Source of the DNA: a virus
Taxonomy: Duplodnaviria > Caudoviricetes
Direction: 5' to 3' (one strand)
Virus record (IMG/VR): IMGVR_UViG_3300024265_000049
Coordinates: 1-63,004 of that record
Length of the DNA: 63,004 nt
Shown: piece by piece, positions 2,838 to 52,933 of the stretch
Layout of the letters: the number at the start of each line of letters is the position of its first letter
Position numbering within the stretch: the first letter of the stretch is position 1
Notes under the pieces: generated by a model
Told to the model about the DNA's origin: nothing
Database searches by the model: none
Seen by the model: the letters and a program-made list of their open reading frames with translations, nothing else
Program-made: the position numbers and the translations under genes

Positions 2838-5800
2838 CTACAGAGTCCGTTCCGCCTGTTCTCTCAACTGCACAAGCTTTTGAAAAACTTCCTCGATTTT
2901 GGCCAACAGGGAATCCAGGGCTCCGCTGACCTCTTTGATTCCGTTTTTGGCGGCTTCGACCAGAGCAGGAATCAGTTCCGTCATCTCGGTAATTTTGACG
3001 CTGATACTGTCGATTTTTGTTTCGACCTTGCCTAGTCCGCCTTCCAGATCTCGAAGTATTCCAAGGGTCTTACCCTTGATCTCTTCGCCAAGAGCCTGGA
3101 GCCGCTTGATCAAATCCTGAAGACTGCCATCGTCTCCAGCAAGCTCCTTAGCCTGTTTTGCGGTTTCTGTCAGCTGAGTTGCTATGTCCTTGATTGCACT
3201 GGCAGACCTTTGGATTCCTTCAGCGACTTCTTTTTCCCCAAGCTTGGCCACGGCGTCGACCAGCTTCTTGACTTCGGCTTCTTTTTCAGCTACTTCAAGG
3301 ACACCCTCGAGAGCTTCCTTGAGCTTAGCAGGACCTTCGGATTCTGAGGATTTGACAATTGCGTCTATATTTTCTTGAAGTTTCTCGAAGTTGCCAGTTT
3401 CTACCGCCGTTGCCAAGGTAGCAAGGATCTCTTCAAGGGTAGTCTTGAAAGGCGGAAGCTTTTCCCCGAGGGTCGAAACGCTGTCAGATATAGCGCCTAT
3501 CGGTTCGGCGACTGCGCCGATAGCCGTACCCGCCTCGGCCAGCCCCGGAACGGCCTCGGCAACGGCAGTGCCGAGCTCCTTAATTCCTTCCCCGGCCTCG
3601 GGAGCTTTGGTGGCTATCTTCCCAACGCCAGCAGCAGTTTTGTTCGACTCCTTGGCAAGAGCCCCAACCCCTTCAGCTGCCTTCTTGGCCCCTTCGCCGA
3701 GATTCGTGAGCTTCTTGACCCCATCCGCCGTCTCGATGATTTTTATTGATTTGGATGTTTTTCTGGTTGAATCGCTCAGGCTGTCTGCGCTGTCCGCAGC
3801 CTTGTCCGATGCGGTAGTCCATGAAAAAATGAGATCGATTCCGTCGTCTATCTCCCCGTCGAGAGCCGCAACCCCTTCGGCTGCCTCTTCCGCCCCAGTG
3901 CCTAAATTGGTGAAACTCTTGACCCCTTTGTCAGTTTCGAAAGATTCGATCGAAGCAGACGCGTCGTCAAGCGCCTCGCTAGTATTGCTTGCCTTGCTGG
4001 CCGTTTCGTCCAGTGTCCGATTGTAGTCTAGAATTTTGCCGGCAGACGTTTGCCCTGTTTCTCCTGTTTTTTCGAACGCTTTGTCAAGTTCTCCGAGAAG
4101 ATCAGCGAGCTCGAACGCTTGAACGCCCCCGCGCTCTCTCAGGCGTTCGAGCTCGGTGACAATCAGCCCGACATTGTTTCGCGCCGTGGCGCTAAGGTTG
4201 TCGAACTCAGACCCGCCCTTGATGATCTTATTTGCCAACTCGTCCAGTTCTTGGCCAACCTGTCCCGTAACATCTTCTACAACCGCCAGTCCAGCAGCCG
4301 CTTGCCGCGAGACAGCATCCGTTTCGGCGAGCGCTTGATTTGCCCCAAAAATAGCGTTTATATCGTCTTGCACGGGATCGCTAAGGCCAAGCCCGCCGGC
4401 CGCATCCTCTTGGATCCGATTCACCAGATCGCGAACGTCTGACAGCTGATCCCGGACCCCTTCTACCCCGGTTGCGCTTACCCCGATCTCTGCGCCCGCC
4501 CCTCTCTCGCTTTCGGCAAGCAGAGCTCTGCGTTTTGCAGCAAAATCCCCGAGCTCTTTTAGTTGTTCCTTGTTTGAGTCCTTCAGATTGTCCAGAAATC
4601 TTTTTTGCGCAGCATTCGCTAAGTCTTCCCGTTCAGCCTGCTCCTTTCTAAGCAAAGCCTTTCGTTCTGCCGCTGCCGCTTCTTCGGCTGCTAATTGATC
4701 TTCAAGCCCTCTTTTTTGCCGGTCTTCGATCCTTTGCAGGATCTTTTCTACTGCGCCGTCAGCGTCTTCTAGAACCTTAATGGAAAGCCCGGTTACCTTA
4801 CTGATCGCAGCAAAAAGAGTTTCCGAGCCCTTGATGTAGCCAATAAGAAACCGGTCAAACGTATTGGCTGCCAGGTCCCACAACTTGATCCAGTCCCCGG
4901 TAACGAACCCCACAAGAGCCCGGGTCAGATCTTGCAACTGATCAGAAATTATCTTGAATGCTCCGGAAACGCTCCCGGCTACCGATTTCCCGCTGATCTC
5001 CAGTTGGTCAAAAAGCTTGAGCCATTCTTCAAGCTCAGGGATCATGTTCTCGCCGATTTCTCGGCCAGTTTCGAAAATCCCATTCTGCACTCTTTGAAGT
5101 GTTGACCTGAAGTCCGCGGCATTCTTGAGCACTGCCGGGCCAAACAATTTGGGCAGCTCAGCTGCCAGTACAATCGTCGCCTCTTTGGCCGGGATCAAGC
5201 CCTTCTTCTGGAGTTCAAAGAGCCTCTCAGTAGTAATTCCCAGGCCCCGTGCAAGAGCTTCGGTGACGCCGGGCAGAACCTCCATGATAATCTTGAGATC
5301 CTGCATCTCAAATTTGTTCTTTGCTAGACCTTGCTCTACTTGCCTGAGTGCCCGATTCAACTCTTCTTGAGTCCGGCCCGCACCCGTAGCGGCAACTGAA
5401 AAACCTTCAACGATTGCCTCTGACTCTTTGAGAGTCAGGCCCATGCGCAAAGCGGTATTGATGAATTTTGCGGTCGATTCCTCAAGCCCCTGGAGATCAG
5501 CCCCCAATGCTTTAGCCCTGGCCCGGACCCGTTCTAGAACTTCGTCGGCTCCAACGCCATCAATGGCGTCCAGGGCGTTCTCGAGACGTTTCAGGTCGTT
5601 AGCGGCCCTGACGGCAGCTCCGCCAAGCTCCGCAACTTTCCGGACCACTATTGCGGCAAAGAATCCGGTAACGGCCGTCCGCAAGCCCTGGAAAGTGCTG
5701 GTCAGTTTCGAGAACTTAGAAGGGGAAGCGTCCTGGGAAAACTTCTTGAATTCCGTCCTGGCTCGCCGAGTGGCCCGCTCTACGTCCTTGAGCTCTTTCT

Positions 5801-13168: not shown

Positions 13169-13242
13169 TTGCGGGAACCGGATTCGAACCGATGCATACT
13201 GGGTTATGAGTCCAGCGCTCTACCAGACTGAGCTATCCCGCG
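13169..13242 (-). tRNA. tRNA-CAT (Met/fMet-like)
   Basis: Cloverleaf CGCGGGA TA GCTC AGTCTGGTA GAGC G CTGGA CTCATAA CCCAG TATGC ATCGG TTCGAAT CCGGT TCCCGCA A; CCA not encoded. Confidence 0.9.
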
Positions 13243-42054: not shown

Positions 42055-42348
42055 TCAGGATTCCGTCCCATCGCCGTCAGCTACCTGGCGATTTTCGCCC
42101 TCTTCGTCTCGCCCCTTATGCGAGAAAACCCGCACACCGCACGGTTCCGCTGTCTTGCCCTCTCGCCTTGGTCTCAGCCTGCCGTCAGGGCCCAGGCGCT
42201 CCCCTTTGTCAGCCCACTGGTCTACCGCTTCCGCCAGGCATTCCTGCAATGGCCTCAACTGTTTCGCGGCATACTCGCGTAGTTTCGTGTACTGCTTCCA
42301 CGGAAGCGTTAGACCCCCTTGTACCTTCTTCTCTTTGACCGCCGCCAT
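42055..42348 (-). CDS. ribbon-helix-helix-like regulator
   Basis: LTLP.KQY.KLREYA....RPLQECLAEAVD; first gene after a promoter. Confidence 0.5.
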   Translation of the reverse strand: MAAVKEKKVQGGLTLPWKQYTKLREYAAKQLRPLQECLAEAVDQWADKGERLGPDGRLRPRREGKTAEPCGVRVFSHKGRDEEGENRQVADGDGTES

Positions 42349-42398
42349 TTTCTGCCGCCCCTTTCCTCGGATTTGCCCTTGCGCCAACTCCTAGGACC

Positions 42399-50623: not shown

Positions 50624-51211
50624 CTAGCCTACCCCTTGGCGTCTTATCGCGCTGAGGGGGCCTAAGGGCCCCAGGGCTACTGCCAGCGCTTCGGCCATGG
50701 CTGGCCCCAGTTCATGGCCAGATCCCATTCCGGCAGGCTTGCCCTCCCAGTGGCACAGAACGAACCACGACATGGCAGCTATCGACACCTCGACCCGGAC
50801 CCCCTTGTCGTAAGCCGCTGCCATCACCTCAAGCGCCCAGGAGTCAGTAGGCTCCGGATACAGGGCGAAGACCAAGTGACTCAGCTTGTCCTTGATCTGA
50901 TCGACAAACGACCGACACTCTTCCTCAGTCTTCCGAACAGTCCAGAACGGCACCCCCTCGAGAGTCCGGCCGCCACACTGCCAAGCCTTCGGGGCAATGC
51001 CGAGGGCCTGGCAGACCATTGCCACCTTGTCGCCATAGTCCTTGGTCAACTGGAAGCGACCCCCACAGGTAGGACATGTTCCGCGCCTGATCGCGAGATA
51101 CATATCCACCTCGGCCCTTGCTAATCTCAGAGTGCCGCCCTCAGCATCCCGGCAAGCCTTGATTGCCCTGGTCTTCTCTCCCCTGTCTGCCAACTCCTTC
51201 CAGTACTCCAT
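50624..51211 (-). CDS. protein with N-terminal ribosomal L7/L12 CTD-like segment and CxxC
   Basis: GEKTRAIKACRDAEGGTLRLARAEVD resembles the L7/L12 consensus G.KI.AIK..R..TG.GLKEAK..V(E/D); AGGAGG RBS. Confidence 0.5.
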   Translation of the reverse strand: MEYWKELADRGEKTRAIKACRDAEGGTLRLARAEVDMYLAIRRGTCPTCGGRFQLTKDYGDKVAMVCQALGIAPKAWQCGGRTLEGVPFWTVRKTEEECRSFVDQIKDKLSHLVFALYPEPTDSWALEVMAAAYDKGVRVEVSIAAMSWFVLCHWEGKPAGMGSGHELGPAMAEALAVALGPLGPLSAIRRQGVG

Positions 51212-51319
51212 CGTTGCCTCCTTTCCTGTTTACCCGGCCATGAATCCCGCTTCCCTGAACCTCGCCTCGACCGGGCACGGTTCGCCCGCCTCGTGCAAAT
51301 CAGCCGCCGTCCCGTGATA

Positions 51320-52534
51320 ATTCCAGGCACCCAGCATCCCCGACTGTAGGCCCAAGTGAGGGTCTTTCAGCCTTCCAGTGATCCTCCAGCGACTCAGCCC
51401 CTATCTCTGAGCCTCGCTTGTCCTTTCCCGTAGCCCGCCAGGGTGGGCATGAAAACGCACCTACAGTTTTTTGGCCTGGACGTCGCTGGTCGCTACCGTG
51501 GGATCACATACCCACTCGTTGCCAGGAAATCGGAGCGTTACTCCCGACCGGGTCTTTCTAGCGTGGAGACACGCGCCGAGCACCGCAGGCTTGACGACTT
51601 GAAATACCCTTGAGATTTCAGGAGTCAGGGACAATCAACACTCCGTTTGCGGCAATTGGGCTGTAGCTCTGAAGCGCAGAAGAGGACTCTTGGAGGTGTG
51701 CTACTACGCCAAAAGCTCCAACGGTCAGCTTGGGAATCATCGGGGGTGCCGCGATCGGCATTCTTAACGAGCCTCGGTCACTCGCCCACCAACTCAAACC
51801 CGCAGTTCCTTTCGTACTGTGCGGGCAAACCCTTGCTTGCGCTACTTTCTTTCTTGGGGTCACGGGCTATCGCTAGATTGACTCTGCCCCCGGTGGAACT
51901 TCACCCGTTTCCGGGCTAAGAAGGGCCGGGTTTGTACTTGGCCAGTGTCGCTCGCTGCGGCCGTCCAGATTTCGCGCTCCGTGTCGCTACGCCGCAACAA
52001 ACTCTACACCGGGCACTTGCGGATGTCTCCGCAAGGTCGCTCCACAGGCGTCTATTCCTGCTTGAGGCGGGCATTTCCTCCACGCCTGCGCGACTGTCAA
52101 GGCGGCTGGTTGCTCCGGATCACCTGCGCAGGCATCCGGATAATACGACTCGCTACTCCTTAGAGGATGGCTGCTTCCAAGCCAACCTTCCCCCAAGGGT
52201 CCACTACTGCGCTTCAAAGATCTGCTCTCAAGAGCTTCATGATCATGGAGCTCTTGAGTCTTTCCAGGGTTCCACGCTACTTGTCAGCTGCGGGGCTATC
52301 GGCAAGGTGCCTTCCTCCCGTCCTCCATGGACGGCGCTGCACAAGTAGTGTGGAACCCTGGCCTATGACCGCTCCCTGTCTACCGCGTCGCCTACTACCG
52401 CCTAGCTAGCCAAGCGTCAGCCGCGCGAGACTGTGGCCTTCCCTGGGGTCTCCAGGGCACAGGGGACGCGCAAGCCGGACAGCTGGCGAGCTGCGGCAGG
52501 AGCAAGTGACTTAGTGACATAGGAAACGGTCATC
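51320..52534 (-). ncRNA. large structured ncRNA (GOLLD-like candidate) containing a split 23S rRNA H43/H44-like motif
   Basis: No credible ORF; many nested helices (52365-52377/52521-52533, 52264-52284/52341-52361, 52226-52258, 51667-51679/52207-52219, 51684-51696/52190-52202, 51343-51350/51460-51467, 51322-51328/51474-51480); GAAA tetraloop at 51904-51915; own promoter. Confidence 0.85.
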
Positions 52535-52540
52535 AAAAGC

Positions 52541-52570
52541 AGTCTACCGGGACAGAGCCCCTCGAGTCAA
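52541..52570 (-). promoter_or_regulatory. promoter of the large ncRNA
   Basis: TTGACT-N18-TAGACT; predicted +1 (~52534) coincides with the first base-paired segment. Confidence 0.65.
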
Positions 52571-52687
52571 GGACCAAAAGCAAACGGCCCCAGATTGCAG
52601 GTCCAGGGCCGATTGGGATGATCGCCTAGCCATGTCACCGGCCAGAAGAATTCTATTCTGGCACAGACGGCGGGGCGGTGTCAAGGG

Positions 52688-52933
52688 CTACCCGCCTCCG
52701 ACGTGTTCAGTTGCACTATCGCACGGATTTCGCGGTGCACGAGCAACCCACTCTGCCCCATCGTACACAGCAGGGAAATACACCCACTTAGCACTCCATG
52801 CAGTGAACGGCTTCCCCTCCTGGATTCCGAACCCGTCGTCAAACTCCGTTTCAAGCTCTTCCTTTGACAGGGTGCATTTCAAGATCTTATCGCCACTTGC
52901 GGCGAACTCAATCCTCTCTTTCCAAGTAGCCAT
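52688..52933 (-). CDS. hypothetical protein
   Basis: GGAAGG RBS; aromatic-rich FTAW...VYFP.VYDG.EWV. Confidence 0.6.
   Translation of the reverse strand: MATWKERIEFAASGDKILKCTLSKEELETEFDDGFGIQEGKPFTAWSAKWVYFPAVYDGAEWVARAPRNPCDSATEHVGGG

Follow-up and report, generated by a model that had tools for sequence, protein, structure and literature searches.

A candidate phage RNA scaffold that carries a copy of the ribosomal GTPase-associated centre

Introduction

On the ribosome, the GTPase-associated centre (GAC) and the sarcin-ricin loop together receive the translation GTPases, and some ribosome-targeting toxins cut or modify the sarcin-ricin loop. Mimicry of ribosomal RNA (rRNA) by the mRNA leaders of ribosomal-protein genes is known. 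The RNAs GOLLD and ROOL are reported to be large and often phage-borne (PMC12286853). Here we analyzed a minus-strand locus on the IMG/VR viral contig IMGVR_UViG_3300024265_000049 (63,004 bp, linear, 73% complete by CheckV); the whole of this contig is called the window. At 51212..52687 it has a gap free of open reading frames (ORFs) in which, on balance, we see a phage non-coding RNA scaffold bearing a decoy of the site where factors bind the ribosome, accompanied by a small upstream RNA. The basis of this explanation is homology, RNA folds, covariation and conserved promoter hexamers; from these we infer transcription, RNA ends, processing, a binding partner and a benefit to the phage.

Results

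An earlier note on this DNA had proposed that an ORF-poor stretch encodes a large structured non-coding RNA with a 5' domain, a long stem, a hairpin, a closed central domain and a 3' domain. The ORF-poor stretch is real: no frame of the gap is open throughout, open stretches reaching at most 99 codons on the gene strand and 143 codons on the opposite one, and none of the gap ORFs tested (0/7) matched a Pfam family. The rest of the genome is dense in genes read with translation table 11, and the gap lies in the early/replication part. Folding was compared with shuffles of sub-regions (100 per region). Positions 52224-52540 fold far better than shuffled sequence (z -9.1, 0/100 as good) and 51660-52225 moderately better (z -3.9), whilst 51212-51664 is no better folded than shuffles (z +0.16, 56/100 as good). 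The closure of the 5' domain (52533-52521/52377-52365), the long stem, the hairpin and the helix that closes the central domain are all present in the minimum-energy fold. The proposed 3' domain (51322-51480) falls in the part with z +0.16, and its region shares 47–57% identity and no conserved fold with a homologous metagenome locus, L018. The large structured RNA therefore stands for about 870 nucleotides (nt; 52534-51665) and fails for the 3' region. Within these bounds we hold with good confidence that it is a real structured non-coding RNA. Its predicted parts are as follows.

51212..52687, minus strand: ORF-free gap of 1476 nt, flanked by two minus-strand genes
52362..52534, minus strand: domain D1, an imperfect rod of ~173 nt closed by 52533-52521/52377-52365
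52432..52462, minus strand: 31-mer at the D1 tip, identical in L018; a hairpin with a 5-nt loop and a 5-nt bulge
52264..52361, minus strand: domain D2, a long stem (52361-52336/52288-52264; 24 pairs, one A.C mismatch, one bulge) around a 47-nt tip
52225..52260, minus strand: near-perfect palindromic hairpin of the window only, not at the corresponding place in L018
51665..52223, minus strand: domain D3, a closing helix (52223-52193/51693-51665) with the ~505 nt that it encloses
51470..51600, minus strand: moderately conserved block 3' of D3, 57% identical to L018; shared fold not significant (z -0.70)
51212..51664, minus strand: 3' region including the formerly proposed 3' domain; unsupported as structured RNA

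L018 is a single metagenome locus, obtained by scanning JGI metagenome contigs with an alignment of relatives of P0001, the product of the gene downstream of the gap. It is 73% identical to window 52645-52424 over 225 nt (expect value, E, 6e-26) and this similarity lies ~2 kb upstream of its own P0001 homologue. L018 retains the promoter-like site P2 (see below), the D1 rod with its identical 31-nt tip, a 25-bp stem at the place of D2 and the D3 helix. When D1 of the window and L018 were folded together with RNAalifold, the 47 pairs comprised 29 unchanged, 8 with one-sided and 10 with two-sided changes, and none was broken; because shuffles also give about 6 such 'compensatory' pairs, the energy (column-shuffle z -3.6) is the more meaningful figure. 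The D2 stem is unrelated in sequence between the two, and of its 25 rungs 6 are the same, 3 changed on one side and 15 on both, with 1 unpaired in the window. In the 27-rung D3 helix 18 rungs are the same, 2 have one-sided and 3 two-sided changes; the remainder are paired only in the window (1), only in L018 (2) or in neither (1). The L018 helix caps just ~55 nt, and the ~505 nt that fill D3 in the window (51691-52195) are missing there. On the 3' side of D3 the two sequences are 47–57% identical without a significant shared fold.

The earlier note had also used G-U pairs to argue for the strand. This argument is weak in the window, where the 5' part has 8 G-U pairs versus 3 A.C mismatches and the other strand reaches z -7.3, and is strong in L018. 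There the gene strand of 1386-1892 folds with -275.7 kcal/mol (z -12.2) versus -230.3 (z -6.6) for the other strand, and the fold contains 30 G-U pairs versus 4 A.C. The strand energies and the excess of G-U pairs settle the strand and argue for selection on RNA.

The tetranucleotide GUAG is enriched on the RNA strand only, at 9.8 per kb in window 51212-52540 (minus strand) versus 2.7 elsewhere in the window (3.7-fold). In L018:1386-2333 it occurs at 8.4 versus 4.1 per kb, and the complement CUAC is not enriched. GTAGCG is found 5 times versus 0.19 expected, and several copies resemble the context of the H44 loop (GGCGUAG...).

The D2 tip of L018 (L018:1592-1744) differs from that of the window; it is 153 nt long, unrelated in sequence and predicted to be a multi-branch fold, with a T-arm-like hairpin near 1723-1741 (GGGTTCGATTCCCG). 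As a tRNA this hairpin was rejected, since ARAGORN called none and the best Rfam match was tRNA-Sec at E 5.3. Possibly the hairpin is a second look-alike of the translation machinery on the same scaffold.

The ~505 nt enclosed by D3 hold a module that the earlier note had missed and that is separable, as it is absent from L018. Blastn of the window RNA against plasmids gave matches of 40–44 nt, which lie where a Methylobacterium plasmid (L022) and the 910-kb plasmid CP136011.1 of Pseudomonas sp. FeN3W (L023) are unannotated, in L023 inside an array of nine tRNA genes. A search with the L023 element then matched 23S rRNA genes, and also unannotated gaps in the phages pf16, Aeromonas 4_4572, XacN1 and others. 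The 23S counterpart of the shared 5' block is the hairpin of helix H43 with its junction, which by rRNA nomenclature we take to be the uL11/thiostrepton domain, that is, the GAC. Every element consists of a 5' H43 block and a 3' H44-like block separated by an insert of 115–433 nt and closed by its own helix. The parts of the window copy are listed here together with a further rRNA-like hairpin in its insert.

51691..52195, minus strand: GAC module, with an H42-like closure (52195-52190/51696-51691) and a ~433-nt insert between its H43 and H44 parts
52166..52186, minus strand: copy of the H43 hairpin, 20/21 identical to Salmonella 23S rRNA (L027 1098-1118), E 2e-4
52154-52152/51716-51714, minus strand: first helix of the insert
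51695..51710, minus strand: H44-like hairpin and 3' strand (GGCGTAGTAGCACACC); two stem pairs invariant in 6/6 members
51798..51826, minus strand: hairpin like the sarcin-ricin loop (AGUACGAAAGGAAC at 51818-51805), with stem 51826-51819/51804-51798

In a longer alignment the H43 part of the window is 26/30 identical to 23S rRNA, and it lines up column for column with five other members of the family; in the phage copies the block of H43 and junction matches Salmonella 23S at 29–30 of 30–31 positions. Four blocks are common to window and L022 in the same order (E 1e-12, 4e-6, 3e-7 and 1e-6). We aligned six members (window, L022, L023, pf16, Aeromonas 4_4572 and XacN1; alignment A3) and scored a common pairing of H42-like closure, H43, junction, insert and H44. 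This pairing was formed in 94.7% of cells versus 79.7% in shuffled and 27–52% in slid alignments, and 8/19 pairs had changed on both sides (reached by 2/500 shuffles). The covariation score was 0.442 versus 0.127 (reached by 0/500 shuffles). Two-sided changes affect 4/6 pairs of the closure helix at the place of H42 and 2/3 pairs of the insert helix, all three of which are paired in 100% of cells, whilst at the junction four members have a U-A pair and the window and L022 a C-G pair. With its ~433 nt the window insert is the longest of the six, the others being 115–284 nt.

The copies differ in their surroundings. Those of pf16 (between tRNA-Asn and tRNA-Pro), Aeromonas 4_4572 (before tRNA-Met) and L023 stand beside tRNA genes, and those of L022, XacN1 and the window do not. 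A perfect 16-bp stem encloses the L023 copy and a long stem of about 16 bp or more that of the Aeromonas phage. None of these elements matches an Rfam family; the family is absent from Rfam 15 and was not met in the literature searched, which did not extend to subscription journals, and it may be described in publications outside that literature. The L022 insert matched itself only among plasmids, gave one 30-nt XacN1 match among phages, and among 401 genomes of one alphaproteobacterial order gave 2 weak short matches, taken as chance. That the central domain of the window RNA belongs to this family of GAC copies is very probable.

A fragment or pseudogene of a 23S rRNA gene was considered and rejected. 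Only the 21–30 nt of H43 match 23S at E<0.05, and the module is not collinear with 23S, since in the module the H43 and H44 parts flank the sarcin-ricin-like hairpin, whose place in 23S is ~1600 nt downstream.

Further observations concern the relatives of the module. A second H44-like motif (GGGCGTAGAAC...) occurs in the inserts of L022 (near 1588-1606) and XacN1 (L026), and the window has GGCGTAGCGAC near 51990. These motifs hint at internal duplication of the H44-like element. In L023:1-2000 the tRNA array contains other unannotated gaps (about 120-600, 860-1040 and 1225-1400), which are possible sites of further RNAs; for this plasmid no RNA genes are given in the PLSDB table.

The hairpin on the inserted branch has the AGUA/GAA bulged-G signature and a closing tetraloop on a helix (51818-51805). 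Its homologue in L022 is 19/23 identical to 23S 2690-2712 (E 0.026), and the hairpin blocks of window and L022 are 83% identical over 36 nt (E 3e-7), with a G-C stem pair of the window replaced by U-A in L022. Among the six aligned members, only these two carry it. A single public run, X1, contains the window stretch; it is a DNA run from a subsurface metagenome, with partial variant contigs of the locus only, and may be where the window sequence came from. One of these, a low-depth contig of 335 nt, is 88% identical over 51669-51881 and has GAGA in the sarcin-ricin-like loop, as in 23S, and GUAACA in the H44 loop, as in XacN1; it thus represents a third, closer relative of the module in the same sample.

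Upstream of D1, two promoter-like sites and a short RNA-like segment were predicted.

52655..52684, minus strand: promoter-like site P1 (TTGACA, 18 nt, CAGAAT, with TG ahead of the -10; 10/12 matches), directly after the stop codon of the upstream gene
52541..52570, minus strand: promoter-like site P2 (TTGACT, 18 nt, TAGACT), predicted start near G52534/A52533
52575..52648, minus strand: short leader or small RNA of ~75 nt, comprising a hairpin, a tail, a terminator-like hairpin and a U-rich run
52645-52640/52631-52626, minus strand: stem of the small-RNA hairpin, with loop 52639-52632 and tail 52625-52617
52611..52585, minus strand: terminator-like hairpin between P1 and P2, followed by a U-rich run

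A sigma70-like scan called these two sites in the gap versus 0.8 ± 0.8 expected. Because such sites are not rare in the window (10 in 19 kb versus 5.7 expected), the weight of the promoter calls rests on conservation. L018 retains both P2 hexamers (TTGACT, 17 nt, TAGGAT) around an unrelated spacer, and its site is also called by the scan, which bears out the proposal that the RNA has a promoter of its own. The second promoter upstream, with its small complementary RNA, is part of the locus and had been overlooked.

The small hairpin, with an identical stem sequence, and the terminator-like hairpin are also retained in L018. The 8-nt loop of the small RNA and two stem bases (52639-52630) are complementary to 52522-52513 of the large RNA, and its tail (about 52627-52617) is complementary to 52533-52524, the extreme 5' end of the P2 transcript; together this makes about 19 pairs in the window and in L018 alike. 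In the 10-bp loop helix, the comparison with L018 showed 3 double and 1 single compensatory changes and none that disrupts it. As the 52533-side segment is also the 5' strand of the helix that closes D1, pairing with the leader and closure of D1 are mutually exclusive. RNAduplex of the whole leader against the whole large RNA did no better than shuffles, and so the case for this pairing rests on position and on covariation in two sequences.

The search proposed in the earlier note, cmscan against Rfam with GOLLD, ROOL, introns and large-subunit rRNA in view, was run. At the gathering thresholds of Rfam 15 the whole window yielded only a tRNA at 13169-13242. With all 4227 models and E<=10, region 51000-52900 gave five chance-level matches (two microRNA precursors, a small nucleolar RNA, a thermometer and a rhizobial small RNA; best E 1.1). 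GOLLD, ROOL, HEARO, OLE, group I/II introns and rRNA did not match this region or L018 at E<=10, nor did the models for RNase P, tmRNA, 6S and Y-RNA-like RNAs, and ARAGORN found no tRNA or tmRNA in L001 or L018. The possibility of a new class, which the note had raised, thus gains ground from the lack of an Rfam match and from the promoter and three helical domains kept in L018.

Other members of the scaffold were sought widely, but IMG/VR, GTDB genomes, phage records and plasmids yielded none. Blastn of the gap and of the L018 RNA against 50,697 phage records gave no match, nor did blastn against E. coli genomes. IMG/VR held no relatives of P0001, of the 135- and 205-amino-acid (aa) proteins or of the major head protein. 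A search with P0002 returned 12 loci, but in each of them genes are closely packed downstream and nucleotide similarity is lacking; in the five contigs with P0002 loci that were searched, only chance matches of 15–19 nt were seen. DNA patterns made from the identical 31-mer and from the 3' block had 0 matches in IMG/VR. GTDB genomes gave 3 matches to the 31-mer patterns (0 for the first pattern), which were discarded as unrelated DNA without the hairpin. The scaffold is thus without a catalogued relative in the databases searched.

The window is a tailed phage, with tape-measure, major head protein, portal, primase/helicase, RecD-like helicase, amidase and lysozyme annotated, and the majority of its proteins have no family. 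The gap is bordered by two genes.

52688-52933, minus strand: upstream gene (phrog_21631)
50624..51211, minus strand: downstream gene P0001, 195 aa, no family; start codon at 51211

P0001 matched no Pfam or PHROG family, and its AlphaFold model is poor (mean predicted local distance difference test score, pLDDT, 50.7). Two relatives were found among 5.8 billion proteins, both on short Logan contigs of ~1.4–1.5 kb (P0003 and P0004), and their alignment led to the L018 homologue (3471-3977), so that the family has four known members: the window, the two Logan contigs and L018. In both the window and L018 the homologue lies downstream of the RNA. Directly after the L018 RNA (L018:2334-2747) there is an ORF of 137 aa, very basic (Lys/Arg-rich) and without a window counterpart, which could encode an RNA-binding protein. 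Elsewhere in the window, the single tRNA gene (13169-13242, minus strand, 60.6 bits) lies among structural genes, 38 kb from the RNA locus, and a 110-aa ORF (42055-42387, minus strand) has a weak Barstar-like (barnase inhibitor) Pfam match (E 8.6e-4, 19.7 bits versus a cut-off of 23.4).

Discussion

In the explanation we favor, the large RNA would start at P2 (about 52534) and be built of the helical domains D1 to D3. The module at the D3 tip would rebuild the top of H42, H43 and H44, with the sarcin-ricin-loop sequence on an inserted branch. It would act off the ribosome as a decoy, capturing a protein that normally recognises those rRNA elements; candidate partners would be uL11/uL10, a translation GTPase of the EF-G type, a RelA-type factor or a host defence toxin aimed at the site. 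The long, near-perfect stems would give the RNA a stable carrier and would probably be processed by RNase III, which would free the tips as in rRNA operons. From P1 would come the ~75-nt hairpin RNA, which would anneal through its loop and tail to the 5'-terminal ~22 nt of the large RNA and tune its folding, processing or stability by competing for the 5' end. As a reading of sequence, the decoy mechanism itself is possible and we put it forward tentatively. A bolder and rather doubtful conjecture is that phages would build modular 'display' RNAs, in which the tips of long double-stranded stems, themselves cut by RNase III, bear interchangeable mimics of the translation machinery. Here a two-part replica of the GTPase site would trap a translation GTPase, a stringent-response factor or an immune toxin, gated by a small tandem antisense-like RNA that competes for the 5' end.

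Several points weigh against this explanation. The scaffold of D1 to D3 rests on two sequences, RNAalifold overfits two sequences, and shuffled D1 alignments averaged 5.9 'compensatory' pairs, with a maximum of 12, versus the 10 observed. L018-type sequence also occurs in the run containing the window, so the two do not stand for independent habitats. The opposite strand of the window folds nearly as well (z -7.3 for the 5' part and -3.2). The H43 loop has G in the window, where 23S, pf16, Aeromonas 4_4572, XacN1 and L023 have A. The likeness to the sarcin-ricin loop spans 12–14 nt, with GAAA in the window versus GAGA in 23S, and RNAs in general often contain bulged-G motifs of this sort. Of P1, L018 clearly retains just the -35; there the site is not called by the scan, and the U-run of the P1 terminator is weak. 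The sole run listed for the locus consists of DNA contigs, with no transcripts, and the decoy function and the role of RNase III are as yet proposals. Lastly, the terminator scan found no terminator-like site from 51665 to the start codon at 51211, and for this reason the RNA may be a leader rather than a separate RNA.

A leader is indeed the main rival, although we consider it unlikely. It holds that the locus is a structured 5' leader of ~1.3 kb belonging to an early operon that starts with P0001. The copy of the ribosomal site would bind a host ribosomal protein or factor and so set downstream expression, like the leaders of ribosomal-protein operons, and the small RNA would act like the antisense RNAs P1 c4/P4 CI on a downstream target in the same transcription unit. 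Besides the missing terminator, a P0001 homologue follows the RNA in L018 too, and the small RNA lies upstream of its target, in the same direction and with two complementary segments. However, the L018 RNA is separated from the P0001 homologue by two further ORFs (137 and 184 aa), and in the window some 450 nt of poor conservation lie between D3 and the gene. Other members of the GAC-copy family lie in tRNA arrays or end at a terminator, not before genes, and the Rfam C4 model had no match at E<=10.

Much less probable is inert DNA or an action at the DNA level, either as decaying 23S pieces or as palindromes that serve as an origin, packaging or protein-binding site. Long near-perfect inverted repeats do fold equally well on both window strands, and the locus is in the early/replication part of the genome. 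Against this reading, the rRNA-like pieces amount to only ~60 nt and are re-ordered (H43, sarcin-ricin-like, H44), and in each of six unrelated replicons a covarying helix of the element itself closes them. The 30 G-U pairs of L018, which turn into C.A mismatches on the other strand, and a gene strand that is more stable by 45 kcal/mol there also speak against it, as do the 3.7-fold enrichment of GUAG on the gene strand only and the conserved promoter hexamers.

Partial coding, whether by a leaderless ORF of 38–41 aa in D1 or through another genetic code, is very improbable. The same frame is open in the window (52533-52417, minus strand) and in L018:1392-1516, with AUG at 52533 and GUG in L018. 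It begins at the predicted transcript start, and the two sequences differ there by indels of 3 nt and 6 nt; the peptide across the identical 31-mer is necessarily common to both. Yet the window/L018 differences number 8/14/10 at codon positions 1/2/3, without a third-position excess, and another frame is also open in both RNAs. Each gene-strand frame has 17–21 stops, and although one frame lacks TAA, all three stop codons occur across the frames, so that no single codon reassignment opens them. No gap ORF has a Pfam match and the remainder of the genome reads densely in table 11.

The least credible alternative is the enlarged GOLLD relative of the earlier note, or a ROOL relative, for which size, phage origin and many helices speak, and against which stand the lack of a match among 4227 Rfam families at E<=10 in the window region or L018 and an architecture of three long near-perfect rods versus many short helices and junctions.

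If the decoy explanation is true, viruses would have a new type of weapon, in which RNA mimics neither a tRNA nor a promoter but the factor-binding face of the ribosome, and an uncatalogued phage and plasmid RNA family that copies the uL11/GTPase domain would gain a testable hypothesis. The window member is the most informative of those aligned. Its GTPase-centre copy is joined to a sarcin-ricin-like hairpin, which points to proteins touching both (translation GTPases, RelA-type factors, toxins), and it indicates that a different stable RNA can receive the module at its tip. Since the unit includes promoters and a candidate RNA regulator, it can be cloned as a whole, and tests do not depend on the uncultured phage. 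The locus also bears on why phages carry unexplained stable RNAs beside tRNA genes. As rRNA mimicry was already known, the novelty lies in this kind of gene and not in the principle. For a GAC copy and a sarcin-ricin-like hairpin on a larger promoter-driven RNA we found no counterpart in Rfam 15 or in the literature searched, subscription journals lying outside its coverage.

Comparison with known systems

One close counterpart is the family of the other GAC copies, with which the window shares the same 5' and 3' blocks, a covarying four-helix core and a long closing helix; unlike them, it is ~505 nt long, sits at a stem tip of a larger promoter-driven RNA and is not in a tRNA array. The likeness to the GAC of 23S itself extends to 20/21 positions of H43, to the stem pairs and loop type of H44, to the junction and to a closing helix at the place of H42. 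In contrast to 23S, the window module is outside an rRNA gene, is closed by its own helix, has a ~433-nt insert and has G, not A, in the H43 loop. The sarcin-ricin loop (H95) is matched in its AGUA...GAA bulged-G motif, a GNRA-type tetraloop and a covarying stem, whilst the window has a GAAA loop and, near the 3' side, an A in place of the C of 23S; the motif is also met in unrelated RNAs.

RNase III releases 16S and 23S rRNA from flanking stems similar to those here. Stems of 21–30 bp enclose each window module in like manner, but their cleavage is putative and the stems may simply stabilise the RNA. The antisense RNAs c4 of P1/P7 and CI of P4 reportedly lie upstream of their targets in the same direction. 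They resemble the small RNA in this layout alone, as a small upstream RNA of the same direction with two short complementary segments, and differ from it in two respects: Rfam C4 had no match at E<=10, and what the small RNA would pair with is a non-coding RNA, at its 5' end. With GOLLD, ROOL and OLE (PMC12286853) the window RNA has in common that it is large, phage-borne, highly structured and of unknown function; it stands apart from them in its lack of an Rfam match and in a rod-like build with swappable tips.

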